IMG/VR virus record: IMGVR_UViG_3300028822_000225
Span: 1-55,818 of that record
DNA: 55,818 nucleotides
Strand: one strand, 5' to 3'
DNA from: a virus
Lineage: Duplodnaviria > Caudoviricetes
Shown: positions 1-55,818 of the stretch, piece by piece
Layout: each line of letters opens with the position of its first letter
Numbering within the stretch: the first letter of the stretch is position 1
Translations under genes and position numbers: made by a program
Notes under the pieces: generated by a model
What the model was told of the DNA's origin: nothing
Seen by the model: only the letters and a program-made list of their open reading frames with translations
Databases searched by the model: none

Positions 1-144
1 CGGCGACTTCTCCAAACCCTAATATTAAACAAACTTCAGAAGAAAAATGAATAAAGAAAAAACAAAAAAACTTTATTTAAGAGAACTAAAGATACCCAGA
101 AAATTTACTTATGATGTTTCTTTAGATATAATTGAAAAAGATTA
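1..144. repeat. Terminal direct repeat, copy 1 (circular overlap)
   Basis: 1..144 is identical to 55675..55818, and the sequence reads continuously across the join. Confidence 0.97.
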
Positions 145-389: not shown

Positions 390-950
390 ATGAGAACATT
401 TGTGGTTTTAGGTGTTCCTCGTGGGGGAACAAGTATGATTGCTGGTTTACTTAGAATTTTCGGTATTCATATGGGAGATTATGTTGATGATACTAAACAT
501 GAGGCTCTTGAATTTGCTGGTTTAACTGTTGATGAGTGTATTGATTTGATTGAAATTAGGAATATTCGTGACGAAGATTGGGGTTGGAAGGAACCATGGA
601 TAGGTCTAATACTTAATGATATACATAATTCTTTTGCTAATCCACACTATATTTATATTTCAAGAGACTTAATTGCTTGTTTGAATAGTGATTTGAGACA
701 TAATGATACTTTTAAAGAAAGAGAGAACGCAGAGTCGTTTATCTGGAATAGGAACCTACACTTAGTTAATGAGATGAATAAGGTACTTAGATATGCAGAT
801 AAGAAACTACTATTGAGTTACGAGGAAAGTTTAAAAAGACCAGAAAATTTAATAGAACAACTTGAAACCTTTATTGGTAAAAAACTCTCTAAAGATAAGA
901 GGGAACAAGCAATTAAATTCATAAAACCAGGATATAGGAAAATAAAATGA
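390..950 (+). CDS. Sulfotransferase-family protein (P-loop, PAPS-binding)
   Basis: VVLGVPRGGTS 5'-PSB loop, WGWKEP, ISRD..ACLNS, and LSYEESLKRPE motifs. Confidence 0.8.
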   Translation: MRTFVVLGVPRGGTSMIAGLLRIFGIHMGDYVDDTKHEALEFAGLTVDECIDLIEIRNIRDEDWGWKEPWIGLILNDIHNSFANPHYIYISRDLIACLNSDLRHNDTFKERENAESFIWNRNLHLVNEMNKVLRYADKKLLLSYEESLKRPENLIEQLETFIGKKLSKDKREQAIKFIKPGYRKIK

Positions 951-1098
951 AAAAAGCTAAATTTGGATGTGAACCATTATATAGGGAGGGAGACAAGTTT
1001 AGGGTTGTTAAAAAAAACAAAGACCCCAACCTTATGCCTATAGAAGCCCTACATTTGAGAACTAAACAAGTTTATGGATTTGAGGAGGATGAATTAGA

Positions 1099-1287
1099 AT
1101 GAATGAAAATAACTACTCAGGAGGAATTGGATTTTTAGGACTGCTTGGATTGTTATTCATAGGACTTAAATTAACTGGATACATTACATGGAGTTGGTGG
1201 TATGTGCTTATGCCTTTGTGGGGACCAATAGCGTTAGTAATATTTGTATTAATGATATTAATTGGGATAAATTTAATAAGGAGTTAA
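1099..1287 (+). CDS. Small 2-TM viral membrane protein
   Basis: LFIGLKLTGYITWSWWYVLMPLW resembles a widespread phage membrane family (Fragile-X-F-like TM). GGAGG lies upstream. Confidence 0.7.
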   Translation: MNENNYSGGIGFLGLLGLLFIGLKLTGYITWSWWYVLMPLWGPIALVIFVLMILIGINLIRS

Positions 1288-1288
1288 A

Positions 1289-1684
1289 ATGAGAAAAGGA
1301 AATTTCGTAAATTTAAATGATGCAATTCCACCTGAGGACCAAAAATTAAGAGATAGCGTTCAAAAAACTAAACACACGGAGGAAAAAGTTATGCAGACGA
1401 AATCAAGATACGAAGTAATCTCAGACCTTGAACAGCAAAAGAGAAATCTTATCAAGGAAAGAGATGGTCTTAAAGACGCTTTGAAAGAGAAGGAAAAGGA
1501 TATTAAGGACCTTGAGAGAAAGAAAAGCGATACTGTCTTGTATTTAGATAGACAGATTGAGGATGCCAAAGACGACCTTGAAAACTTCCAGAAAACACTA
1601 GAAGAAAGAAAGGAAACAATTAGTGAACTTATCAAGGGTGTTGATGAGAGTCTTCAAAGATTTAATGAAATGCAGCAGAAATAG
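1289..1684 (+). CDS. Coiled-coil protein
   Basis: Charged heptad-rich sequence. An alternative start at about 1391 has GGAGG upstream. Confidence 0.65.
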   Translation: MRKGNFVNLNDAIPPEDQKLRDSVQKTKHTEEKVMQTKSRYEVISDLEQQKRNLIKERDGLKDALKEKEKDIKDLERKKSDTVLYLDRQIEDAKDDLENFQKTLEERKETISELIKGVDESLQRFNEMQQK

Positions 1685-1727
1685 TTGCATTTCTTTTTAT
1701 ACTCTTCAGAAAACAAAATCAAAAATT

Positions 1728-1842
1728 TGACCCCCACCTGAGGAGATGCCCACTGTCGGGCTACCTTAATAAGATGGATAAGGTATAGTGCCTTAAACAG
1801 GTACATTTATATATCATAAATCGTTTCAAAGTGGGGGATTCA
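1728..1842 (+). ncRNA. Candidate structured RNA (multibranch junction)
   Basis: GC-rich intergenic island. Outer stem CCCCCAC/GTGGGGG encloses four hairpins: GCCC/GGGC, TACCTTA/TAAGGTA, GTGCCT/AGGTAC and ATTTAT/ATAAAT. Confidence 0.55.
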
Positions 1843-1852
1843 TACTCAAAAA

Positions 1853-2077
1853 ATGGACGAAGAATTTGCACAAGAACAGTTTAGAAAGTATTTGAAGAAA
1901 GTAGAAGAAATTTCGGATTTGAAAAATTATATTAAAAAATTAAAGAATACCATAACTGTTTTAGAAGAAGAAAACACAGAATTGAGGAAAGAAAATAAAA
2001 AAATGGGTAAAGAGATAGAAGAATGGATGAAAATATCTCCAAATTGCCATGCTGACCCAGATAGAAAAAATGAATAA
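1853..2077 (+). CDS. Small coiled-coil protein
   Basis: ORF coupled to the next gene. Confidence 0.6.
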   Translation: MDEEFAQEQFRKYLKKVEEISDLKNYIKKLKNTITVLEEENTELRKENKKMGKEIEEWMKISPNCHADPDRKNE

Positions 2078-2330
2078 AAAAGATAAAGAAAAAATAAAAA
2101 GACTAGCAGAAATCCTATATTTTGAAAAAGGAGTGGAGGAGATTAAATTTCTCCCCTTTCTTAGAAATGGCTATCCTAACTGGGTTAGTAAGTTATTTTA
2201 TAATCCAAAAAGAGATTATGTTGGTAAGTGGATAGAAGAAAAGGGAGAAGAAATTAAGGATATTATTTTTGCCTTAGCTGTTGAGGGAGATGTTGATTCT
2301 ATTTTAAGGGAGTTGGAAAAAAATGAGTGA
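2070..2330 (+). CDS. Hypothetical protein
   Basis: Track ORF 2049..2330. The ATG at 2070 overlapping the upstream gene end is the likelier start. Confidence 0.55.
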   Translation: MNKKDKEKIKRLAEILYFEKGVEEIKFLPFLRNGYPNWVSKLFYNPKRDYVGKWIEEKGEEIKDIIFALAVEGDVDSILRELEKNE

Positions 2331-3336
2331 AATTTTTGGACAAGACAAGATATTTAGTCATGTAGATAAAATACACAATTGGCTAGAAGGAGACCCAAAT
2401 ACATTAATCACTATGGAGATGGACCCAACAGATAATTGTAATAACAATTGTCCAGGGTGTGCAGGGGGGAGAACAGGCCAATCATCCTTAACATTGGAAG
2501 AAATGACTGGTTACATTGACCAGATGAAAGATATTGATGTTAGAGGTCTTATTTTTTCAGGGGGAGGTGAACCCTTAGTTAATCCATCTACGCATAAGGC
2601 TATTTCTCATGCTAGAATGTCTGGATTGGATGTTGGTTTTATAACTAATGGTCTTGCTTTAAAAGAGGATTTATATGATACTCTCCTAAATGATTGTACA
2701 TGGATTAGATTTAGTTTAGATGCTGGAACCCCTGAGATGTATAAACAAACTCATGGGATGAATGAAAGAGCCTTTAATAAGGTTCTTGAAAACATTAGAG
2801 GGATTTCTAGTCGTAAAAAAGAAATTGGTTCTGATTGTACATTGGGAGTTGGTTATCTTGCAGGTAAGGAAACTTTGGGTGATATGGTTAATTTCGCAAG
2901 AATAAGCAGCGAATTAGGTGTAGACTATGCACAATTTAGACCCTTTCATAGAGACCGTACTTCAATAGCTCCAGAACTTGCTAAGTCAAAGAAATATGAA
3001 AGAGATGATTTCAAAGTACTTCATTCTGCACAGAAATATAAACATTTTTTAGAGGAAAACCCCAGACCATATAATGAATGTCATGGAGTTAATTTTGCTT
3101 CAGTAATCCAAGCTGATTCAAATTTGACTACTTGCTGTCACATGAGGGGGAAACCTAAGTATTACTTAGGCAATCTAAAAGAAAATACACTTAGGGAAAT
3201 ATGGGAATCGGATAAGAAAAAAGAAGTTTTTGAAAATATTGATTTTAATGATTGTGTTCCTTACTGTAGATGCGATTCGTTCAATAGGGTACTTTATGAT
3301 ATTAAACAAGAAAAGACACATAAGAATTTTTTATAA
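2323..3336 (+). CDS. Radical SAM protein with SPASM/twitch domain
   Basis: CNNNCPGC (CX3CX2C), SGGGEP, ITNG and SLDAG motifs. C-terminal C...TCC...LGNL....L.EIW...C..C.C. Confidence 0.93.
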   Translation: MSEIFGQDKIFSHVDKIHNWLEGDPNTLITMEMDPTDNCNNNCPGCAGGRTGQSSLTLEEMTGYIDQMKDIDVRGLIFSGGGEPLVNPSTHKAISHARMSGLDVGFITNGLALKEDLYDTLLNDCTWIRFSLDAGTPEMYKQTHGMNERAFNKVLENIRGISSRKKEIGSDCTLGVGYLAGKETLGDMVNFARISSELGVDYAQFRPFHRDRTSIAPELAKSKKYERDDFKVLHSAQKYKHFLEENPRPYNECHGVNFASVIQADSNLTTCCHMRGKPKYYLGNLKENTLREIWESDKKKEVFENIDFNDCVPYCRCDSFNRVLYDIKQEKTHKNFL

Positions 3337-3337
3337 A

Positions 3338-3907
3338 ATGATTTACTTTATACATATACCAAGAACAGGCGGTGGAAGTTTAACCAAAGCCATTGAAGAT
3401 AATAATGCGAACATTAAGAGAATAGGGCATAACACTTATAATCCAAAATGGAAATCCGCAAATGATATTTTGGAAGAAGAACAAGGGGCAGAGTTTTTTA
3501 CAATCCTTAGAAATCCTTATGATAGGATAATTTCTGTTTATAAGGCATTAAAGTTTAATCCGGGTACTAGTGATATGGAATTTTATAAAAAATATATGAA
3601 AAAATATAATAATATTAATGAATTTGTGGACGATTTGGATTTCTTAATTAAAAATACAAACAATCCCCACATTAAACCACAAACTTTCTTCATCCCAATG
3701 GAAGAATCGATAGGAATATTTTTTTATGAGAAGATGGAAATGCTTAAAGAATTTTTAGATATTTTTGATAGTAATATATTTAATTCTTTTAAAAGTGCTA
3801 AAAGGCATTTATCTCCTAAGAAAGATATTCAATTAAATGAGGAATCTAAAAAAAAGATAGCAAAGATTTATGAAATAGATTTTGCTTTCGGGGGTTATCA
3901 AAAATGA
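3338..3907 (+). CDS. Sulfotransferase family 2 protein
   Basis: FIHIPRTGGGS, FTILRNPYDRIISVY, HIKPQ and YEIDF..GGY motifs. Start moved to the in-frame ATG at 3338, just after the radical SAM stop. Confidence 0.88.
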   Translation: MIYFIHIPRTGGGSLTKAIEDNNANIKRIGHNTYNPKWKSANDILEEEQGAEFFTILRNPYDRIISVYKALKFNPGTSDMEFYKKYMKKYNNINEFVDDLDFLIKNTNNPHIKPQTFFIPMEESIGIFFYEKMEMLKEFLDIFDSNIFNSFKSAKRHLSPKKDIQLNEESKKKIAKIYEIDFAFGGYQK

Positions 3908-4908
3908 AATTTAAAATAATTGGAGCTGGGTTGACAGGGTTAACAATAGCTAGAATTATGCAAGATGCAGGACATAATGTTACTGTATTTGAGAAAGGTG
4001 AAAATATTGGTGGGCTTTGTAGAGATGTTAAAGAGAGAAAGTCAGGGGTTTGGTATAATCCACACGGAGTTCACATTATGCATTTCAGAGAATCAGATAA
4101 AGAGGCACTCTCATTCATTAAAAAACATGTTAGATTGATTAGTTACAATCACAGAGTCCTGATGCTTGGTAAGGGAACTTTTGGATATTTCCCTCCTAAT
4201 GAATTGTCTCAAGAATTATATAATATTACTAATCCCAGAGATTCTTTCTTTAAGGAATTCATAAAATCTTATTCTAAAAAAATGTGGGGATTAAAATGGA
4301 ATATAATAAAGAAGAAAATTAGTAATAGATTTGCTTTCCAGAACAAGAGAAATTATTCTTTCTTCGGAAGTGAAAAAGTCTTTGTACCAGAAAATTATAC
4401 TAAATTATTTGAAAACCTTTCTAAAGGAATTAAGATAAAATTTGGGAATAGGGTTGATGTTACAGACTACAAATTAGATAAAGAGAAATCTATTTATATC
4501 ATAACATCTCCAATTGATGAATTCTTTTTAAATTGTTATGGTAAATTGAGTTGGAGAGGTATAGAAATTGGAAATCATTTAATCAAAACGAATGAAAATA
4601 TTTTACCTGAAGCAGTAGTAAATACAAATAAACATCCTAAACTACTTAGAATGGTTGAATATAACCAATTACCTCATAATAGGAAAAGTACAGGATATAG
4701 TATAATCTCTTTAGAATATCCTTCTAAAAAAGAGAATCTTTGTTATCCTATCCCAACTAAAAGTAATGAACGAAAGTTAAATAAATACTTAGAGCTTTCT
4801 AAAAGTTATGAAGATATTTACTTTGTTGGGAGGCTTGGGGAATACAAGTATAAAAACATGAATGAAGCGATTGCAGATGCTATTAAATTTTGTGAGAAAT
4901 TCAAATGA
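3904..4908 (+). CDS. glf: UDP-galactopyranose mutase-like flavoprotein
   Basis: GAGLTG FAD motif, IGGLCRD, HGVHI.H, PIDEFF, YP.P and GRLGEYKYKNMNEAI. Confidence 0.85.
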   Translation: MKFKIIGAGLTGLTIARIMQDAGHNVTVFEKGENIGGLCRDVKERKSGVWYNPHGVHIMHFRESDKEALSFIKKHVRLISYNHRVLMLGKGTFGYFPPNELSQELYNITNPRDSFFKEFIKSYSKKMWGLKWNIIKKKISNRFAFQNKRNYSFFGSEKVFVPENYTKLFENLSKGIKIKFGNRVDVTDYKLDKEKSIYIITSPIDEFFLNCYGKLSWRGIEIGNHLIKTNENILPEAVVNTNKHPKLLRMVEYNQLPHNRKSTGYSIISLEYPSKKENLCYPIPTKSNERKLNKYLELSKSYEDIYFVGRLGEYKYKNMNEAIADAIKFCEKFK

Positions 4909-4926
4909 GAACTAATATTCAGGGGA

Positions 4927-5008
4927 GTGTGCAGGAAGTAAAAACCTTGAAAAATCTTTCTAAGAAAGTTTCATTTATCGTTGGTGTATTGTTTCCTTCC
5001 TCGCACAC
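4927..5008. repeat. Bulged stem-loop element, copy A
   Basis: GTGTGCAGGAAG (4927-4938) pairs with CTTCCT-C-GCACAC (4996-5008) around a 57-nt loop. The arms are identical to copy B. Confidence 0.85.
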
Positions 5009-5019
5009 ATTGATTTAAA

Positions 5020-5145
5020 ATGAAAGATAAAAAAAGAAAAGAATTACTTGAATGGAAATATCATAAAGCATTACAACTTAAACAATATGATAGAGCAAAG
5101 GTGTATTTAAAATTATTAAAAGAATTGGAGGAAAAAGAAGAATGA
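5020..5145 (+). CDS. Small 41-aa protein ending in the ELEEKEE junction motif
   Basis: Translated by hand: MKDKKRKELLEWKYHKALQLKQYDRAKVYLKLLKELEEKEE. The stop overlaps the next ATG. Confidence 0.55.
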   Translation: MKDKKRKELLEWKYHKALQLKQYDRAKVYLKLLKELEEKEE

Positions 5146-5405
5146 GTAAAATAAAAACTATAAAAGATTTGAAAGAGGATATTATGTATTTTGATTTTAG
5201 AAAAGAAACATTTAAACACCCTCATTATAAAAGAAAAGATGAAGAAGAATTTAAAGAAAGATTTACAGCGGGAACGATGAATATAGTTTCAGTAGAAGAA
5301 CTAAAAGAAGAAGCAATTAAGTGGGTTAAGGAGTTTAGACATCAGGGGAATTGGGAAGAGAAGTTCATTCGTTTCTTTAATCTCACAGGGGAGGATTTGG
5401 AATGA
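5142..5405 (+). CDS. Paralogue family member (KTLKD...EAIKW...FFN.T.EDL)
   Basis: Shares N- and C-terminal motifs with the ORFs at 9704, 49775 and 52340. Confidence 0.75.
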   Translation: MSKIKTIKDLKEDIMYFDFRKETFKHPHYKRKDEEEFKERFTAGTMNIVSVEELKEEAIKWVKEFRHQGNWEEKFIRFFNLTGEDLE

Positions 5406-6739
5406 AAACACTTGTAGTTGCTAAATATAATGAGGATACCAAATGGACAAGAGATTTTGAAAATGTAGAGATAATTCATAAGGGAGTGGATTTACCTAAT
5501 TTTGGAAGAGAACAACATACTTTCCTTTGGTATATTGTGAATAATTATGAGGAACTTAATGGATATTATTTCTTTGTTCAAGGAAATCCTTTTGACCATT
5601 GTGAGGATTTAAAGGAAGTTTATGAAACTCGTTTAGAAAAGAAATGGACACCTTTAGGGAAGAAACTGGGAAGTAAAAAAGGGGAACGTATTTGTGAATT
5701 GGATGGGAGACCACATCATGGAACAGGAAATTTAAAAATTAAAGAATTCTTATCAGATATTGGGATAAATTATAATCGTAATTTGATTAAATTCTATGCT
5801 GGAGGGCAATATTCTATTCATTCTAGTGAGATAAAAAAGAAACCGAAAGAATATTATGAAAAAGTTCTTAATTTATTTGATAAATATGGAGAAAAGGCAG
5901 GATATATCTTAGAAAGAGTTATGCAATTTGTATTTAATTGGAAGGAATTTGAACATTATGTTGTTACTAGATTTGCTTACCCAACCAATTATCCTTATTT
6001 TGAAGAGAGAAAAAGGATTTTCAAATTATTTTTAATTGAATGTTTAAAAGAACAGACTAATAAAAACTTTAAATTTATAATAATTGGAAACGATAAAACA
6101 CATGAATTAGAAGAAGAACTAAAAGGAATTAATTATCAAATCTTACATGAGGGCTTGGGATTTGTTAAAGAAAAACCTTTAGAAGTTTTCGACCTTCAAT
6201 GTAATTATCTTATAACTACAAGATTTGATGATGATGATTTAGTTCACCCAGAATTTGTGGGAAAGATTCAAGAATTATTCAAAAAATTAGATTATCTTTC
6301 TCCCTATGTAATAGATTTTAAGGGTTTTAGATATGATATGAGAAATCGTAAGGCCTATAAAGTTACTGAGTATGACCCTAGAACTGGTTGGGGAACTTCT
6401 CCTTTCTTAACTTTTGTTGAAAAAGCAGATATAGAAAACATAAAGACTTGTGTCTACCTTAAACATGGGCATATGGGACATAATTTCCATTTACACTATG
6501 TGGACCAAGAATATTGGATTCAGGTTGCACACCATCTTAACATTTCAAACAACAAATTGCCTCGCTTATTTAAATATCCTGAAGTTAAGGAAAGACTCTA
6601 TTTTTCTAAATATATAAAATTCTTACTTGAAAATTTTAATTTAGTTGATTATAGTGATGTTGTTATCACTAATGAATACTTGAAAAAGATTAAAAAAGAG
6701 AAGGATTATTTAGATAAAGAAATTACTAAAGAAAAATGA
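5402..6739 (+). CDS. DUF3431-like domain fused to a putative GT-A (rhamnosyltransferase-like) domain
   Basis: N-terminal LVVAKYNED..W, PNFGRE.HTFL.YIV.NY and FFVQGNPFDH. C-terminal HYVVTRF, CLKEQTNKNF and TTRFDDDD. Confidence 0.75.
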   Translation: MKTLVVAKYNEDTKWTRDFENVEIIHKGVDLPNFGREQHTFLWYIVNNYEELNGYYFFVQGNPFDHCEDLKEVYETRLEKKWTPLGKKLGSKKGERICELDGRPHHGTGNLKIKEFLSDIGINYNRNLIKFYAGGQYSIHSSEIKKKPKEYYEKVLNLFDKYGEKAGYILERVMQFVFNWKEFEHYVVTRFAYPTNYPYFEERKRIFKLFLIECLKEQTNKNFKFIIIGNDKTHELEEELKGINYQILHEGLGFVKEKPLEVFDLQCNYLITTRFDDDDLVHPEFVGKIQELFKKLDYLSPYVIDFKGFRYDMRNRKAYKVTEYDPRTGWGTSPFLTFVEKADIENIKTCVYLKHGHMGHNFHLHYVDQEYWIQVAHHLNISNNKLPRLFKYPEVKERLYFSKYIKFLLENFNLVDYSDVVITNEYLKKIKKEKDYLDKEITKEK

Positions 6740-7608
6740 TAAGTGTAATTACTTGTGTTTGGAACAGAGAGAATGAAAGGATACAAAACTGTATAGATTA
6801 TTTAAAAGACCAAGTAGACGAGATAATAGTTGTCGATTATGGAAGTGATGAACCTATAAAAATTAATAATGCTAAAATAATTAGGTATGATAAAAATCCT
6901 GTATTTAATAAATCTCATGCACTAAATTTAGGAATTAAGGCTGCCAAAAATAAATTTATTATGTGTGTAGATTGTGATATGATTATTCCCGAAGATGTGG
7001 TTTCTGATATAAAAAACACTTTGATAGACGATGCAACTTTTATAATAAATACAAATGTTAATAGGATAAATAAGGGGGACATTGGTAATTGGGATAAGGC
7101 TTTCCCTTGGCATAAGGAAAATATTGGTATGAATCGTGCGAGGTCCTCTGCAAATGGGGGGATGCAAGTATTTTCAAAAGAATGGGTAGAAGAAATTCAT
7201 GGATATGATGAACAATTCATACTATTGGGATGTATGGATAATGATATGGTGAATAGGGCTGTTTTCAGTGAAATGAGAATAATTGATGTTAATATGCCTA
7301 TATATCATCAAGAACATGAAAAGAAGAAGGGAGATGTTTTTGGTAAAGAAAATGAGGAGAAAGTTAACTTTATCACAAACGAGAAACTGCATTACTACAT
7401 AGAAAAAACAAATAATATGATTGTAAAAAATCCAGGTCCTTGGGGAGAAGATGAACCAAATCAAGATAAATTCATAAGTTTATGGACTAATTGGGATGAA
7501 ACATTTCCTGCATTACAAGACAAACGTGAAAAAATGCTTCAAGAAATTAAAAATTTTATAATTGAAAAAAAAATACCTATAAAAAAAATGGATGTGAAAT
7601 GGAAATAA
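6736..7608 (+). CDS. Glycosyltransferase family 2
   Basis: ISVI, EIIVVDYGSD, FNKSHALNLGI, DCD (DxD motif), GYDEQF..GCMDND and HQEH. Confidence 0.9.
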   Translation: MISVITCVWNRENERIQNCIDYLKDQVDEIIVVDYGSDEPIKINNAKIIRYDKNPVFNKSHALNLGIKAAKNKFIMCVDCDMIIPEDVVSDIKNTLIDDATFIINTNVNRINKGDIGNWDKAFPWHKENIGMNRARSSANGGMQVFSKEWVEEIHGYDEQFILLGCMDNDMVNRAVFSEMRIIDVNMPIYHQEHEKKKGDVFGKENEEKVNFITNEKLHYYIEKTNNMIVKNPGPWGEDEPNQDKFISLWTNWDETFPALQDKREKMLQEIKNFIIEKKIPIKKMDVKWK

Positions 7609-48126: not shown

Positions 48127-48159
48127 GGTAAAAAAAATGTGCTAAAAAGGTGCAAAAAG

Positions 48160-48459
48160 ATGAAAACACTGGATATTGAAAAATTAAAGGAGAAAGCAAA
48201 TAGTTTTGAAAGAAAACCAAGTGGGAAGATTAAAGATTCTATTCTCAGAGCAAGGAGGATACTTAAAATCCTTGAAAGAGATAACTTCTCTTGTGTAGAA
48301 TGTGGAAAAAATACTAAATTAACTATTGACCACATAGAAAAGAATAAATTTAAAAGATATGGAAAATCTTGTTATTATAAAATAAACGAATGTCAGACAC
48401 TCTGTTCGGAATGTCATACAAAAAAGAATATAAAAATAAAGTTACTAATTAGTAACTAA
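48160..48459 (+). CDS. HNH endonuclease
   Basis: RDNFSCVECG, LTIDHI and N.CQTLCSECH..K. The ATG at 48160 is preferred over the track start at 48139. Confidence 0.88.
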   Translation: MKTLDIEKLKEKANSFERKPSGKIKDSILRARRILKILERDNFSCVECGKNTKLTIDHIEKNKFKRYGKSCYYKINECQTLCSECHTKKNIKIKLLISN

Positions 48460-51929: not shown

Positions 51930-52194
51930 AATCAAAGAAAAGTTAGAGAAAGGTTTAGATTTACTTAAACATGTAGAAGATTATGATTTTGACGTCTTTA
52001 GTGAGAATGCTGAACTTTTGGAATATACACACTTTCAAGGAAGATTAAAACAACACGAGGAAACAAAAAAAGCAGAAAGAGAGAGATTTTTAAGATTGAT
52101 AGAACGACACGAGTTTGAACACGGGGATTTTCAAGGACTAATTATAAGTTCTGTAGAATTATTAAAAAAAGAATTGGAGGAAAAAGAAGAATGA
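51919..52194 (+). CDS. MKDKIKE...EETKKAERER paralogue
   Basis: Shares DNA blocks with the ORF segments at 50341 and 53547. Confidence 0.7.
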   Translation: MKDKIKEKLEKGLDLLKHVEDYDFDVFSENAELLEYTHFQGRLKQHEETKKAERERFLRLIERHEFEHGDFQGLIISSVELLKKELEEKEE

Positions 52195-52216
52195 AAAGAG
52201 ATAATACTCAAAGGGA

Positions 52217-52299
52217 GTGTGCAGGAAGTAAATACTTTGAGAGCAATAATTCTAATACCAGAGCTTGTTTTATTGTTTTTGTGCTACTTCCTCGCACAC
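52217..52299. repeat. Bulged stem-loop element, copy B
   Basis: GTGTGCAGGAAG(TA) pairs with (TA)CTTCCT-C-GCACAC. 58 nt lie between the core arms. Confidence 0.85.
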
Positions 52300-52339
52300 A
52301 ATAATTTAAAATGAAAACACTTAAAGAGATAAAGGAAAA

Positions 52340-52648
52340 ATGAAAGAACTTAAAACATTAAAAGATATTGAATTTTTTGATGACCATGATAACCATATAG
52401 CAAAGGAATATAATGACAGTGTTAAGAATGATTTGAAAGCCGAAGCTGTGAAGTGGATTTATAAATTTGATGAAGACCCTTATTATATGGAGCAGGAAAA
52501 TGGAGAGATAATGAAATGGATTATGTATTTTTTTAATATAACAAATGAAGAATTGGAGGAAAAAGAAGATGATTGTGATAAAGGAAAAGAAAAAGGAGAT
52601 GACATAAGAATCTGTGGATATAAAATATTGGAGGAAAAAGAAGAATGA
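52340..52648 (+). CDS. KTLKD paralogue with read-through extension
   Basis: MKELKTLKDI...LKAEAVKWI...FFNITNEELEEKE. Confidence 0.75.
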   Translation: MKELKTLKDIEFFDDHDNHIAKEYNDSVKNDLKAEAVKWIYKFDEDPYYMEQENGEIMKWIMYFFNITNEELEEKEDDCDKGKEKGDDIRICGYKILEEKEE

Positions 52649-53541
52649 AAGACAAAAAGTATAAATTAACAAATGAGAAAAAAGAAGTTTTTGGGAGAAC
52701 ATTATATAGAATAGAGGCAATTAGAAATTTTGGAATTATAGAAAAAGGAGAATTGGGGGGATTTATTGAAAAAGAAGAAAATTTATCTCATTATAGAAAT
52801 GCCTGGGTGTATGGAGATGCTAAGGTGTATGGGTATGCTGAGGTGTATGGAGATGCTGAGGTGTGTGGAGATGCTGAGGTGTATGGGTATGCTGAGGTGT
52901 ATGGAGATGCTGAGGTGTATGGAGATGCTGAGGTGTGTGGAGATGCTAGGGTGTGTGGAGATGCTAAGGTGTGTGGAGATGCTAGGGTGTATGGAGATGC
53001 CTGGGTGTATGAAAAGGCTAGGGTGTATGAAAAGGCTAAGGTGTGTGGAGATGCTAGGGTGTGTGGAGATGCTAAGGTGTGTGGAGATGCTAGGGTGTAT
53101 GGAGATGCTGAGTTGTTTGGAAATGCAACAATAAAAGAACAGCAAAAAATAACAACAGGATTTATTACAAAACCTTTAGAAGGAAAATATAGTTTTATGG
53201 CACAAATAGGTTTTTATCCTACTGATGAATTTATTTTATATAAAAGAGTGAATAAAGTCAGCGAGGGAAAATATTCAAGTGGTTATGATAAAAATTTTAT
53301 ATATAAAGATGGAAAAATAAAAAATTTTATATATAAAGATGGAAAAATAGTTGAAGTTAAAAATCCAGATATGTCCAACAAATCTTGTTCAAAAGGAATA
53401 CATCTATCTAATCCACTATATTGGGAACAAGGAGATACTATAATAGCCTGTCAAGTAAAATGGAAAGATGTTATAACAATACAAGAGGGAAAGGTCAGAG
53501 TAAAAAAATGTTATGTAATTGGAGAAGTAAATGATTTTTAA
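52645..53541 (+). CDS. Hexapeptide-repeat (left-handed beta-helix-like) phage protein
   Basis: LYRIEAIRNFG...GELGGFIEKEENLS N-terminus, about 17 V(Y/C)GDAx repeats (18-bp unit, about 52801-53112) and a CSKGIH...GKVRV C-terminal domain. Confidence 0.85.
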   Translation: MKDKKYKLTNEKKEVFGRTLYRIEAIRNFGIIEKGELGGFIEKEENLSHYRNAWVYGDAKVYGYAEVYGDAEVCGDAEVYGYAEVYGDAEVYGDAEVCGDARVCGDAKVCGDARVYGDAWVYEKARVYEKAKVCGDARVCGDAKVCGDARVYGDAELFGNATIKEQQKITTGFITKPLEGKYSFMAQIGFYPTDEFILYKRVNKVSEGKYSSGYDKNFIYKDGKIKNFIYKDGKIVEVKNPDMSNKSCSKGIHLSNPLYWEQGDTIIACQVKWKDVITIQEGKVRVKKCYVIGEVNDF

Positions 53542-53849
53542 TGAAGATGAAAGATAAAATAAAAGAACAAATAAGAATGATGCAAGAAAAAAACATTAAT
53601 AGAGTTTATATTCCTAATGGAGCTTTCAGAAGATTAGAAGTTATGATAGATAAAGCAATAGAAGAAACAAAAAAAGCAGAACGAGAGAGGATTTTGGATT
53701 TGGTTAATGAATTGGCTTCTTGGACTTGTGAATGTAATTGTATCACTTTTGATAATGGAAAATGTAGAAATTGTGGGAAATCTCCAAAATATGGAGAATT
53801 AGATGTTGAAGAATTTAAAAGAAAATTGGAGGAAAAAGAAAATGGTTAA
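53541..53849 (+). CDS. MKDKIKE...EETKKAERER paralogue with zinc ribbon
   Basis: Shared blocks plus CEC...CRNC. Confidence 0.7.
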   Translation: MKMKDKIKEQIRMMQEKNINRVYIPNGAFRRLEVMIDKAIEETKKAERERILDLVNELASWTCECNCITFDNGKCRNCGKSPKYGELDVEEFKRKLEEKENG

Positions 53850-54078
53850 CATAGAAATAATGATTGAAAACTGGTGTGAAGAAAAAAGGATTGATATTGA
53901 TAAAATTCCAGATGAAATACTTAGACAAACAGAAAATAGGATAGATGATGATTTTGATAATTTTTTAAGAGAAAAAGGTAAAAAAATAGTTGATGAGTGG
54001 TGTTGGATGTTTATAGAACAAGAGTTGGAAGATAATCCTGAATGGAAAATAAAAGAATTGGAGGAAAAAGGAGAATGA
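53842..54078 (+). CDS. Acidic hypothetical protein
   Basis: Starts and ends in junction motifs (track start 53803). Confidence 0.6.
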   Translation: MVNIEIMIENWCEEKRIDIDKIPDEILRQTENRIDDDFDNFLREKGKKIVDEWCWMFIEQELEDNPEWKIKELEEKGE

Positions 54079-54257
54079 AAAGTAGCAATATAATTCCACA
54101 GGAAATGAAGGGGTATTATACCAACGATAAAACAGATGTTTTTCCAGACCATTATTTCCAATGGAAAGTTCGTTTAACCTATATTCCCAGCAGGAAGAAC
54201 AAATTTAAATTTTCAAGCAGGAAGAACAAATTTAAATTTTCACTCCCAGCGTTATAA
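54075..54257 (+). CDS. Small hypothetical protein with a 27-bp duplication
   Basis: ATG lies in a junction motif. SRKNKFKFS occurs twice. Confidence 0.45.
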   Translation: MKSSNIIPQEMKGYYTNDKTDVFPDHYFQWKVRLTYIPSRKNKFKFSSRKNKFKFSLPAL

Positions 54258-54258
54258 A

Positions 54259-54627
54259 ATGGAAGAAAATCAAAAAATAGCACAAATAAGAAAGTTGAAG
54301 AGAATGAATAAAAAATTGTTAAACATAGTTCCACTTATTGAAAAAAAAGCTGGACAAAAATTAAAATTACTCCACAACAATTCTTTTTATGATAGGTGTG
54401 AAGAATATGTTGATGGAAAAGCATTAGGAGTTTCCAACTTTTATTACGAATGGTTTAAAGAAGGAACTATGACTTCTGTTGAATTTATGTATGGTGTTGA
54501 GTTAATGAATAACAATTTTTATTTCGTCTTTGAGAAGTGTAATATAATTGTTCAAGATGAAGTTAAGAAGTTTCTCAACTTTCAAGACTTTTTTGATTTT
54601 CTTAAAAAGAGGGGGAAACTATCGTGA
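54259..54627 (+). CDS. Hypothetical protein
   Basis: 122-aa ORF. Confidence 0.65.
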   Translation: MEENQKIAQIRKLKRMNKKLLNIVPLIEKKAGQKLKLLHNNSFYDRCEEYVDGKALGVSNFYYEWFKEGTMTSVEFMYGVELMNNNFYFVFEKCNIIVQDEVKKFLNFQDFFDFLKKRGKLS

Positions 54628-54636
54628 AAATTAAAA

Positions 54637-54747
54637 CTTCTGGGAATATCAATTTAGGAGTTCCGAAAATCAAAGATTTTCTCCATCCTAATTTCTGCTT
54701 CGCAGAAACTATCCTAAACAACAATATTAAACGAAATAAACTTGCCC
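54637..54747. other. Branched hairpin site upstream of the methyltransferase
   Basis: TTTAGGA/TCCTAAA stem enclosing GAAAATC-AAA-GATTTTC and TTTCTGC-TTC-GCAGAAA, followed by AATATTAAAC at 54723-54732. Confidence 0.75.
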
Positions 54748-54764
54748 CCTCGCAGAGATGAAAA

Positions 54765-55724
54765 ATGAGATACTTCAGTATATTTACAGGAATCGGTGGA
54801 TTTGAATATGGAATACAACAAGCATTACCAAACGCAGAATGTGTCGGATACTCAGAGATTGACAAATACGCAATCCAAACTTACGAAAGACACTTCAAAC
54901 ACAAAAACTATGGAGACGCAACAAAAATTAAGCCAGAAGAATTACCAGACTTTGATATGCTCTGTGGAGGATTTCCTTGTCAAGCATTCTCAATCGCTGG
55001 AAAACGGAGAGGTTTCAAAGATACCAGAGGCACGATGTTTTTTGAGATTGCAAGAATACTTGAAGTTAAAAGACCTAAGATTGTATTCCTCGAAAATGTC
55101 AAAGGGTTACTCAATCACCAAAAAGGGGAAACTTTCAGAGTCATCATTCAAACGCTTTCAGAATTGGGGTATGATGTTCAATGGATGGTTCTTAACAGCG
55201 AATTTTTTGGAGTTCCCCAGCAACGGGAAAGAGTCTATATTATTGGACTACTTAGAGGAAAATCCATCAGAGAAATCATTTCTTTCAAAACAAGAAATAA
55301 AAAAGATAGTGAGTTGTTATCAACCAAGAGAGTTCAAAACTGGAAAAAGACAAGGTGCAATTACATTAAATACGAAGATTCCGAAAAAAGCGTGGACTCT
55401 TACATCAACGAGAATAATTGGGAGGACTTCATTTGTGATTCCAAGATGAGAACTTTAACACCAATAGAATATGAAAGATTGCAGGGATTCCCTGATGGAT
55501 GGACAGAAGGAGTATCCGACACACAGAGATACAAACAATGTGGTAATGCTGTAACAACTAAAGTAATAAAATCCATCATGGAGAAACTAATCGTGGGCAA
55601 GTTTACTCAAGGGGCTACGCCCTCGTTTAATAAGGATTTAGAGGTTTCGGCTACGCCTACACCCAAATCGCCTTCGGCGACTTCTCCAAACCCTAATATT
55701 AAACAAACTTCAGAAGAAAAATGA
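54765..55724 (+). CDS. dcm: DNA (cytosine-5) methyltransferase
   Basis: FTGIGG (motif I), GGFPCQ (IV), LENV (VI), Q.RERV (VIII), R.LTP.E.ERLQGFP (IX) and YKQCGNAV (X). Confidence 0.95.
   Translation: MRYFSIFTGIGGFEYGIQQALPNAECVGYSEIDKYAIQTYERHFKHKNYGDATKIKPEELPDFDMLCGGFPCQAFSIAGKRRGFKDTRGTMFFEIARILEVKRPKIVFLENVKGLLNHQKGETFRVIIQTLSELGYDVQWMVLNSEFFGVPQQRERVYIIGLLRGKSIREIISFKTRNKKDSELLSTKRVQNWKKTRCNYIKYEDSEKSVDSYINENNWEDFICDSKMRTLTPIEYERLQGFPDGWTEGVSDTQRYKQCGNAVTTKVIKSIMEKLIVGKFTQGATPSFNKDLEVSATPTPKSPSATSPNPNIKQTSEEK
54796..55449 (+). CDS. Nested +1-frame ORF inside the methyltransferase gene
   Basis: 217 stop-free codons in an AT-rich gene, containing WGMMFNG and LLDYLEENPSEKSFLS. Confidence 0.55.
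   Translation: MDLNMEYNKHYQTQNVSDTQRLTNTQSKLTKDTSNTKTMETQQKLSQKNYQTLICSVEDFLVKHSQSLENGEVSKIPEARCFLRLQEYLKLKDLRLYSSKMSKGYSITKKGKLSESSFKRFQNWGMMFNGWFLTANFLEFPSNGKESILLDYLEENPSEKSFLSKQEIKKIVSCYQPREFKTGKRQGAITLNTKIPKKAWTLTSTRIIGRTSFVIPR
55595..55716. other. Branched hairpin site downstream of the methyltransferase catalytic region
   Basis: Hairpins GGGC-TAC-GCCC, GGC-TAC-GCC and TCGCC-TTC-GGCGA, with the last two inside a GTTTAATA/TATTAAAC stem. AATATTAAAC at 55695-55704. Confidence 0.75.
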
Positions 55725-55818
55725 ATAAAGAAAAAACAAAAAAACTTTATTTAAGAGAACTAAAGATACCCAGAAAATTTACTTATGATGTTTCTTTAGA
55801 TATAATTGAAAAAGATTA
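55675..55818. repeat. Terminal direct repeat, copy 2
   Basis: Identical to 1..144. Confidence 0.97.

Follow-up and report, generated by a model that had tools for sequence, protein, structure and literature searches.

The window, by which we mean the whole stretch of 55,818 bases analysed here, is a complete 55.8-kb tailed-virus record in which many ORFs have no known family. It carries a terminal repeat of 144 bases, window 1-144 being equal to 55675-55818, so the genome runs on from site 2 into window position 1 and the end of the record falls inside that site. The features of the region are collected in Table 1. Its central gene encodes a C-5 cytosine DNA methyltransferase whose homologues align over residues 1 to about 276; from about residue 277 onward the protein is translated site 2, and this tail is common to only 3 of 13 aligned homologues. 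The frame entering from upstream stops at 54759-54761, within the leader of the methyltransferase cassette. A remnant of a further site (site 0) has its end at 54185, which makes 54186-54728 look like another cassette; the sequence suggests that the window carries two cassettes, not one. No Pfam family was found for the 122-aa ORF of this cassette A. Its leader pairs with the 5' block of site 1 at -12.4 kcal/mol and is similar to the leaders of cassettes at loci L030 and L036 that terminate in a site of this kind. By motif comparison, the motif separating the 45-aa GTG ORF from the 122-aa ORF is shorter by one base than its counterparts in other cassettes.

Table 1. Features at the right end of the window (positions are those of the window)
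Feature	Position	Strand	Description
Site 0 (first-site remnant)	54155-54185	+	One hairpin, 3' strand and box ending at 54185; resembles the 3' third of other sites
Cassette A	54186-54728	+	Leader with 27-base tandem duplication, 122-aa ORF, site 1 at 3' end
122-aa ORF of cassette A	54259-54627	+	No known family
45-aa GTG ORF	54624-54761	+	Frame-0 read-through of site 1
Site 1	54639-54736	+	Diverged three-way-junction recombination site (putative); box 54723-54732
Methyltransferase cassette	54729-55700	+	972 bases; one register, boundary placeable anywhere within the 10-base box
Leader of methyltransferase cassette	54729-54764	+	Arms 54729-54734 and 54737-54747, stop codon, ribosome-binding region
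C-5 cytosine DNA methyltransferase	54765-55724	+	319 aa; PF00145, E 1.6e-89
5' block of site 2	55580-55622	+	Conserved motif 55580-55593, outer arm 55595-55605, invariant small hairpin 55612-55622
Site 2	55623-55708	+	Intact three-way junction: two stacked closing helices and two hairpins; box 55695-55704
Terminal repeat	55675-55818	.	Equal to window 1-144
Right flank	55701-55724	+	Supplies the methyltransferase stop codon, overlapping the next gene's ATG (55721)

A preliminary description of this region had proposed that the methyltransferase gene is a single-gene cassette between two folded sites whose outer arms pair across the sites. The elements on which it relied are present. The 10-base box occurs twice in direct orientation (54723-54732 and 55695-55704), spaced 972 bases; 54725-54734 is the exact reverse complement of 55623-55632 and 54737-54747 that of 55595-55605, the two arms together making one bipartite duplex; hairpins with three-base loops occur in both sites; and both are stop-free in the frame named. 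A 6-base pairing of 54637 with 55711 also exists, but is too short to count as evidence by itself. Among window pairs with matching geometry, 1 in 3000 equalled the core cross-site duplex (-23.2 kcal/mol) and 25 in 1500 equalled the whole-site duplex. Plain local alignment of site 1 with site 2 was not significant, random windows reaching the score in 103/978 and 135/976 cases, and in end-to-end alignment they did so in 2/594 and 0/585.

The weightiest evidence is comparative and comes from a covariance-model search, as suggested in that description. A model built from other loci (R2, run with filters off) recovers site 2 at 78.4 bits (E 2.4e-15) and identifies site-bearing contigs of both viruses and DPANN archaea. 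Site 1 is the best forward match in the window after site 2, at a borderline 19.7 bits (E 0.12); no other window position scored better than E 0.44, and site 0 gave no match at E<=10. Site 1 folds into the two hairpins with the closing helices absent. By these model comparisons, site 1 is a diverged copy of the site family typified by site 2. An Rfam scan of 54400-55818, with an Rfam release that lacks a standard attC model, returned nothing at the sites, and blastn of site 2 against 50,697 GenBank phage records gave no match.

The sites share a distinctive fold. The minimum-energy structure is a three-way junction in 20 of 22 sites, the exceptions being site 1 and the site at L064. Across 24 distinct sites, 91.6% of 746 cells of the alignment pair, compared with at most 50.6% in slid controls, and 126 cells are changed on both sides, compared with 38.9 +/- 4.9 in shuffles, none of 500 of which reached 126; these counts were made on an alignment itself fitted to the model's structure. 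A second inverted pair is evident, with compensatory changes in 9 of the 18 pairs of helix 1 in the inner closing helix and a variable tip sequence, and the two stacked helices are separated by only a 2-base bulge. Taken as modelled, the sites are a covarying family of three-way junctions. The folding strand is most likely the bottom strand, which is the more stable in 20/22 sites and in 23/25 of a second set, an excess that may partly reflect the energy model's loop bonuses. The inner stems carry 18 A.C mismatch cells on the coding strand, each equivalent to G.T on the bottom strand, and only 2 G.T cells.

These sites are organised as cassette arrays. In the window and 17 other loci, the model finds 41 forward-strand sites, with a maximum of six in 2.6 kb (L029); arrays of three to six sites occur at L029, L030, L031, L036, L041, L070 and L096. 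The sites are direct-oriented and always lie at gene 3' ends, at least two of them within 4 kb and each behind one promoterless ORF, as are sites 1 and 2 at their spacing of 972 bases. DNA methyltransferases of three families make up 12 of the 18 ORFs in or adjoining the virus-type arrays. Frame 0 is open through 33 of the 41 sites, the other frames through 2 and 6, and for 13 of 27 stop codons the distance to the following start is between -4 and +10 bases. Since the cassettes have no promoter of their own and the frame runs through the site to stop in the next leader beside the next start, expression is probably by translational coupling, as judged from the sequence.

The boundaries of the cassettes coincide with the box. 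One and the same methyltransferase leader stands behind three different, unrelated upstream sites (in the window, L027 and L030), with the join inside the shared box, and these three independent left junctions are confined to a 9-base stretch even though the upstream sites differ. At the other end, seven different sequences occur behind 5' blocks of the methyltransferase type. The 5' block of site 2 is the same in 9 metagenome loci, with no change at any base, even at synonymous positions, and in other cassettes its outer arm covaries with the leader. Both leader arms of the methyltransferase cassette are complementary to the 3' block of that same cassette. When the leaders of 23 virus-type cassettes were compared with 38 candidate blocks, the best partner was the 5' block of the same cassette in 13 and ranked first or second in 18; at L041 the partner of the block is the start of the cassette to which it belongs, and the next cassette's start does not pair with it. 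A bulge-helix-bulge RNA splicing motif, which has a 3-4-3 geometry, was considered for this long-range pairing and rejected because the geometry does not fit.

Population data point to the same crossover. The preliminary description had predicted that exchange in the shared box would yield an empty site and a circle of about 972 bases, and had asked for relatives with an empty site or different cargo. The first product was found: in public run X1 a contig of depth 5.9 joins 54722 to 55695, skipping 972 bases, with just 20 letters per side and with 10 letters that fit either side of the join. Depths in this run were 20.5 for the left flank, 9.62 for the cassette and 17.8 for the right flank, and contigs break at the boxes. 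Filled and empty alleles thus coexist in run X1, which may be the window's own source; the contig documents a presence/absence polymorphism and does not show active excision. The second product was not seen, the circle junction being absent from the public runs, which are stored as contigs from which rare forms are dropped. Different cargo is represented by run X12, in which 54621-54728 recurs with 1 difference before a different cassette. In the same run a loose end places the box letters and the predicted cassette start ahead of 54227, and a form at depth 152-186 looks like a leader joined directly to site 1 without cargo. Comparative and population evidence for excision or insertion at the outer box hence comprises three left and seven right junction contexts and the 972-base-skip contig. 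A candidate allele without both cassettes (a joint 54180->55696 in run X2) was discarded as too weak, with depth 3.6, a side of 20 and 85% likeness. What runs X2, X3 and X12 contain is limited to conserved stretches of the cassette and of the sites. Outside run X1 there was no near-identical virus lacking the cassette, nor were close relatives found among viral contigs via two neighbouring proteins, and a back-translated pattern of the methyltransferase tail had no match in viral contigs.

Relatives of the sites on large contigs of DPANN archaea bear on the identity of the recombinase. A pattern scan of genome contigs gave 79 stretches, mostly chance matches in bacteria, of which six, picked by archaeal label or hairpin filter, were given to the model; five held sites and one (L107) held none. 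In the DPANN class, 22 of 151 sampled genomes bear sites. The core is a canonical GTT in 23 of 25 sites on the large contigs, with ..TAAC on the 5' side, and at 6 of 10 loci the first cassette is preceded by a divergent, XerA-like tyrosine recombinase. The best family for these array-adjacent enzymes, two of which are encoded at L176:8253-9080 and L177:757-1542, is NF040815 (archaeal XerA / integron integrase). Against TIGR02249 they score 194-204 bits, below the cut-off of 265, in two matching stretches that omit about positions 180-237, and by this profile comparison the recombinases adjoining chromosomal arrays lack the IntI-specific domain. Of five genomes checked, one had such an enzyme as its only XerA-like copy; identities between array-adjacent genes and the other XerA-like genes are 37-48% and do not define two clear groups. 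The array-adjacent recombinases could be housekeeping XerA genes that are there by chance.

In the complete virus window, no tyrosine, serine or Y1-HUH recombinase was found, and PF01797 (Y1 HUH transposase) was absent; one other viral record contained one sub-threshold Y1-HUH match. Nor was any non-methyltransferase protein common to the window and 15 site-bearing loci, and therefore no candidate viral recombinase emerged. With no recognisable recombinase in the window, the enzyme probably acts in trans, as had been proposed, and the tyrosine type is the one that co-occurs with relatives of the sites.

We considered whether the sites might act as RNA, in the form of a terminator, a processing signal or a translation-coupling element, with the mosaics at the box made by ordinary homologous recombination. 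Their position on the coding strand, the single translated frame and the stops beside following start codons would all suit such a role, attC sites are thought to contain weak terminators (PMC9892861, in the part of that report available), and the 3' 25-40 bases common to many sites could seed homologous exchange. We nevertheless regard this as improbable. Mismatches and stability both favour the non-coding strand, and left junctions so tightly confined beside differing upstream sites do not suit ordinary exchange. In addition, the leader pairs with a block 0.2-1.1 kb downstream and tracks the ends of its own cassette, not its neighbours, and the tyrosine recombinases beside homologous sites at host loci find no place in this account.

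Slightly less likely still is that another recombinase is responsible, either an HUH rolling-circle nuclease nicking after the box or an unrecognised viral enzyme, and that the likeness to integrons is convergent. The virus-type box, which presumably resembles the nick-site nonamer of the Rep proteins of small circular ssDNA viruses, carries A/T in the place of the conserved G/C required by integron integrases, classical integron cassettes do not have the long complementarity between cassette ends, and the many window ORFs without a family leave room for such an enzyme. Against this stand the missing Y1-HUH family match in the window, the absence, at 15 site-bearing loci, of any window protein besides methyltransferases, and chromosomal relatives of the sites with canonical cores and neighbouring tyrosine recombinases. 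A third reading, in which sites 1 and 2 are chance palindromes or arose by separate insertion of a small non-autonomous element (a MITE, or IS200/IS605-type ends), is very improbable: the abundant cargo-less form in run X12 might be taken as MITE-like, but the sites are direct and not inverted and always sit at gene 3' ends, neither a Y1 transposase nor a matching Rfam family was found, and chance palindromes are excluded by the model score and the covariation.

We consider it probable that the methyltransferase gene is an integron-type gene cassette with a folded attC-like site at its 3' end and a recombinase supplied in trans, a reading supported by the covarying three-way junctions, the shared leader and the empty-site contig. 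Of the earlier wording 'integron-like but non-canonical', the first part holds; the sites are nearer to true integron attC than was assumed, because their chromosomal relatives carry canonical core triplets. In the proposed mechanism, one strand of the site, most likely the bottom one, would fold into two stacked helices (the R-box and L-box equivalents) under a branched two-hairpin tip. A tyrosine recombinase acting in trans, for which the XerA-like enzyme beside homologous DPANN arrays is a likely candidate, would then exchange strands within the shared box. The exchange would release a 972-base circle and leave one hybrid 'empty' site, or else a site already present would take up a circle. 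Within the circle, the cassette leader may pair with the 5' block of its own site, lengthening the stem by about 21 base pairs. Without a promoter of its own, the cassette would depend on a reading frame that traverses the site and ends in the next leader beside the next start codon. The C-5 methyltransferase probably shields viral DNA from host restriction, and arrays of such cassettes would allow the viruses to reshuffle their methylation repertoire.

Bacterial integrons and CALINs, i.e. attC clusters without an integrase, offer the closest comparison. In both, a single promoterless ORF is followed by an imperfect palindromic site, and the sites form direct-oriented arrays; both kinds of site have two stacked pairing boxes with a variable tip, and the bottom strand, favoured in integrons, is here the one that the computed folds favour. 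In bacterial integrons, too, the crossover lies inside the outer box, so that a cassette's own site pairs with its opening bases, and CALINs likewise can lack an integrase on the replicon. However, the crossover reads AAT/ATT, in place of the conserved AAC/GTT of attC, in the two window sites and in every one of the 41 virus-type sites, although the pattern that seeded the search favoured the ATT form; we know of no enzyme that cuts at an ATT-type crossover. Virus-type sites also differ from bacterial attC in that the tip forms a conserved junction of two hairpins in which the linker motifs are fixed, the complementarity reaches 11-16 bases past the outer box, the site is translated in one frame and only the 2-base bulge parts the two boxes. 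The neighbouring recombinases, unlike those of classical integrons, lack the IntI-specific domain. A further parallel is provided by CTX phage, in which a folded single strand mimics dif and the host Xer recombinase is exploited. Such elements share with the proposed system a folded single strand as substrate of a host Xer-type tyrosine recombinase and insertion in tandem. Their units are whole phages and not single genes, and no dif-like core was identified at our sites.

Integrons are familiar mainly as platforms on which bacteria carry resistance genes. Archaeal integrons have been on record only since 2022 (Ghaly et al. 2022, PMC9668308; 75 of 6718 genomes), with integrases that have the IntI-specific domain; in that study, recombination of archaeal attC sites was assayed after delivery by conjugation. 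As far as the available part of that survey goes, its attC arrays, in archaeal metagenome-assembled genomes including Nanoarchaeota (DPANN), are likewise mostly without an integrase. It differs in that our sites, the chromosomal ones of which may overlap with its own, occur in 22 of 151 sampled genomes of one class, that the recombinases here are XerA-like and without the IntI-specific domain, and that viruses are not covered in that part. In the portion of the literature searched, there was no report of integrons in archaeal viruses. We infer that the host of this virus is a DPANN archaeon, and viruses of these tiny archaea seem to swap such methyltransferase cassettes, altering the marking of their DNA. 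More tentatively, and as a possibility that we rate somewhat below an even chance, DPANN archaea and their viruses may run an integron-like system of their own, with a XerA-type enzyme without the IntI domain and distinct three-way-junction sites. Its viral cassettes would have an A/T crossover pair and long end complementarity, be translated through, and mainly shuffle methyltransferases of the three families as an anti-restriction repertoire. Such a system could have arisen independently or be sister to the bacterial integrons, and within the class (about 15% of the genomes sampled) it would be much commoner than the published archaeal survey suggests.

The site family is well defined and comes with a working search model, a natural sample that holds filled and empty alleles together, and a candidate recombinase without the domain thought to define integron integrases. 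Three questions thereby become testable: whether Xer-type enzymes drive cassette exchange, how viruses of ultra-small archaea match host restriction systems, and why a recombination site should be kept translatable. Clusters of attC sites in viruses have a precedent in bacteriophages, both virulent and temperate phages carrying CALINs (PMC9892861). According to the available part of that report, those are phages of bacteria with sites recognised by the standard attC model, whereas the virus studied here has a presumed DPANN archaeal host, its sites belong to a lineage-specific family and a presence/absence polymorphism is seen in a natural sample. The cargo is similar in one case, a Polaribacter phage CALIN that encodes two putative DNA methyltransferases (PMC9892861).

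The preliminary description held that two related sites flank the methyltransferase gene, with arms that pair across it, and all of its sequence elements were recovered from the window. The 10-base box is present in two copies 972 bases apart, as a listing of repeats confirmed, and the arms 5' of the methyltransferase start (11 and 10 bases) are exact reverse complements of two stretches from codon 277 onwards, between which sits a small G+C hairpin. Of 3000 window pairs with matching geometry, one equalled the bipartite duplex so formed (-23.2 kcal/mol), a rarity that is suggestive rather than decisive, given that 56 kb had been scanned to find it. Global alignment of site 1 with site 2 was matched by 2/594 and 0/585 random windows; local alignment alone showed nothing out of the ordinary. 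A covariance model run over the window with filters off scored site 2 at 78.4 bits (E 2.4e-15) and site 1 at 19.7 bits (E 0.12), with no match better than E 0.44 in the rest of the window. The observation is real. The gene also contains a perfect 14-base inverted repeat, longer than these arms.

The gene encodes a C-5 cytosine methyltransferase (PF00145, E 1.6e-89) whose homologues on viral contigs align only over residues 1 to about 276, so that site 2 forms a C-terminal extension. Of 13 aligned homologues, 3 share the beginning of this tail and a short motif close to where it ends, the middle being variable. A degenerate pattern back-translated from the conserved tail peptide had no match in viral contigs and found nine loci in metagenomes. 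All nine share identical first 38 bases, synonymous positions included; past this point they diverge yet still form two hairpins, with fixed motifs between and after these and the box last. Identity at synonymous positions, together with a varying stretch that still folds, therefore points to a conserved nucleic-acid structure and not a conserved peptide.

The minimum-energy fold was a three-way junction (outer closing helix, 2-base bulge, inner closing helix and two hairpins) in 20 of 22 sites, the exceptions being site 1 of the window, which lacked the closing helices, and one at locus L064, with two hairpins only. Two covariance models were built. Among 24 distinct sites aligned to the first, in an alignment fitted to the model's own structure, standard pairs occupied 91.6% of 746 cells, 19 of 33 pairs showed changes on both sides, and 126 cells had changed on both sides compared with 38.9 +/- 4.9 after shuffling (0/500 shuffles reached 126); sliding the partners by 1-3 columns lowered pairing to 31-51%. 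The inner closing helix had already emerged from an independent MAFFT/RNAalifold analysis, in which 7 of its 10 pairs showed compensatory changes. Rfam held no family matching the sites. Two near-identical sites, at loci L025 and L026, differ in that the 4-base loop of the first hairpin is inverted, as if the loop had been flipped.

Such conservation could reflect a structure in the mRNA. However, with DNA energy parameters the bottom strand was the more stable in 20/22 virus-type and 23/25 chromosomal sites, and inner-stem mismatches were A.C on the coding strand, hence G.T on the bottom strand, in 18 cells (many from related sites, and so not 18 independent events), G.T on the coding strand occurring in only 2. 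Both biases speak for folding of the bottom DNA strand, as in integrons, and against a structure at the mRNA level.

Across the window and 17 further loci the model identified 41 sites on the forward strand, all in direct orientation and each at the 3' end of an ORF. They form arrays of six within 2.6 kb (L029), four (L030, L036, L041 and L070) or three (L031 and L096). Of 18 ORFs in or beside arrays, 12 encode DNA methyltransferases, which fall into three unrelated families (PF00145, PF01555 and PF05063); one encodes an HNH nuclease, and five could be assigned to no family. Irrespective of cargo, sites are preceded by a conserved motif some 14 bases long, in the window and at L027, L030, L031 and L041. 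The leader of the window methyltransferase recurs nearly identically behind three different upstream sites (window, L027 and L030), the sequence before the final five box bases being different in each, and seven different sequences follow the methyltransferase-type site, which places the point of exchange within the box.

A cassette begins with the reverse complement of the block that immediately precedes its own terminal site. This rule applied, with a different sequence each time, to five consecutive L029 cassettes and to those of L030, L036 and L041; in L041 the partner of a block is the start of the cassette that it belongs to, not the adjoining next cassette. When every leader of 38 complete cassettes was tested against every candidate block, the own block was the best partner in 13/23 virus-type cassettes (first or second in 18/23) and in only 2/15 from large DPANN contigs; own and non-own duplex energies differed at p = 2.5e-7 (Mann-Whitney). 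Complementarity of own ends is what a circular intermediate would lead one to expect. Joined in silico, the predicted circular form of the window's methyltransferase cassette gave one long closed structure (top strand -27.0, bottom strand -32.2 kcal/mol).

The public sequencing run X1 covers 89% of the words sampled from window 52000-55818 and may derive from the source sample of the window. Its contigs break exactly at the boxes, and an additional one skips the 972 bases, 10 letters fitting either side; its 20-letter sides are what a 31-mer graph yields for a junction-only contig. The empty site that had been predicted thus exists alongside the filled form, which demonstrates a polymorphism but not that excision is going on. 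The run contigs contained no circle junction, though a rare one would not show in them. Run X12 contains the site-1 stretch again, with a single difference, ahead of another cassette, and a loose end there carries the box letters and the start predicted by the own-ends rule ahead of 54227. Together with the sequence at 54155-54185 this identifies a degenerate third site, which makes the stretch with the 122-aa ORF a second cassette, A. X12 also contains, at high depth, a cassette leader joined straight to site 1 with no ORF between; this form may be a cargo-less mini-cassette that exists in many copies. The cassette A leader carries a tandemly duplicated 27-base unit, of which an X1 contig has one copy only.

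Contigs and other features; positions refer to the window unless another locus is named.
Feature	Locus	Positions	Depth
X1 left flank contig	window	54158-54732	20.5
X1 cassette contig	window	54703-55704	9.62
X1 right flank contig	window	from 55695	17.8
X1 junction contig	window	54722 joined to 55695	5.9
X12 leader joined to site 1	window	54227-54246 + 54621-54728	152-186
Methyltransferase gene (+)	window	54765-55724	
Site 1; site 2	window	54639-54736; 55623-55708	
Methyltransferase cassette	window	54729-55700	
Cassette A	window	54186-54728	
Duplicated 27-base unit	window	54189-54242	
14-base inverted repeat	window	54840-54853 / 55510-55523	
Pre-site motif	window	55580-55593; 54612-54624	
Terminal repeat	window	1-144 = 55675-55818	
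Sites with inverted loop	L025; L026	161-246; 878-963	
Putative glycan-modifying block	window	390-7608	
Beta-solenoid protein	window	52645-53541	
HNH ORF	window	48139-48459	
HNH cassette ORF	L029	127-609	
Four large ORFs	L168	718-9064	
DDE transposase	L170	2450-3316	

Of the three reading frames, the one in which the last box codon is ATT stays open across 33/41 sites (the other two across 2 and 6), and the read-through ORF ends 9-102 bases inside the next leader. In 13/27 cases the distance between its stop and the following start is -4 to +10 bases, eight of them ATGA overlaps; in the window, the methyltransferase stop overlaps the ATG of the next gene. Reading through site 1 in frame 0 gives the 45-aa ORF, which is parted from the 122-aa ORF by a conserved pre-site motif one base shorter than in other cassettes, which brings a stop codon into frame. 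The translational coupling proposed earlier is therefore plausible, judging by the open frame and the stop/start overlaps.

Six-frame searches of the complete virus gave no match to tyrosine recombinase, serine recombinase or Y1-HUH families, nor was a recombinase found among 34 window ORFs scanned against Pfam, and the window and other site-bearing loci had no protein in common apart from methyltransferases. The second model found sites in 22/151 sampled genomes of the class containing a Woesearchaeota-labelled genome, several on contigs of 300-600 kb. In 6 of 10 chromosomal loci retrieved (25 sites), a tyrosine recombinase of 262-302 aa (split in one) is encoded shortly before the first cassette, on the opposite strand, the same layout as in integrons. 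The best family for these recombinases was archaeal XerA / integron integrase NF040815 (3 of 4 tested above cut-off); TIGR02249 (integron integrase) fell under cut-off, its two-piece match skipping positions ~180-237, the location of the IntI-specific domain. A second XerA-like gene occurred elsewhere in 3 of 5 genomes checked; one had the array-adjacent gene only. Chromosomal sites have the canonical core: their 5' side reads ..TAAC, and the boundary triplet is GTT in 23/25. Virus-type sites have ATT in 41/41, a set seeded by a search pattern that favoured ATT. The chromosomal cassettes whose cargo was tested encode a serine hydrolase and a HIT protein, not a methyltransferase. On one 457-kb DPANN contig (L168), four large ORFs (406-1025 aa) directly 5' of the array may be a type I restriction-modification system, by size and order; on another (L170), a DDE transposase with an IS240-type domain adjoins the array-adjacent recombinase.

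The mechanism first put forward, an integron-like single-gene cassette with a recombinase supplied in trans, is the best supported of those considered, and we regard the element as one that works in the manner of an integron cassette. It is not classed with the canonical attC/IntI system because the core triplet and IntI domain, defining features of that system, were looked for and are absent from the window. Integrons are described in 75 of 6718 genomes of Archaea, Nanoarchaeota included, with integrases bearing the IntI-specific domain (PMC9668308), and attC-site clusters, some with methyltransferase genes, are known in bacteriophages (PMC9892861); in literature listings we found no report of such cassettes in archaeal viruses or of XerA-type recombinases beside attC-like arrays. 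Part of the chromosomal sites may already be catalogued in the 2022 archaeal integron paper (PMC9668308). The element bears on integron research, archaeal viruses and restriction-modification arms races.

The window is a complete IMG/VR virus record of 55,818 bases (GC ~30%), with the element at its right end; owing to the 144-base terminal repeat, the gene 3' of site 2 resumes at window position 47. It encodes a phage-type portal protein (PF04860), a weak terminase match and two tRNA genes. Two sulfotransferases, a radical-SAM/SPASM enzyme, a UDP-galactopyranose mutase and two glycosyltransferases form one block, which looks like a glycan-modifying gene set. A 298-aa protein has YdcK-type beta-solenoid repeats, a short motif in a highly repetitive run, and there is an HNH endonuclease ORF; another HNH ORF forms a cassette in the L029 array.
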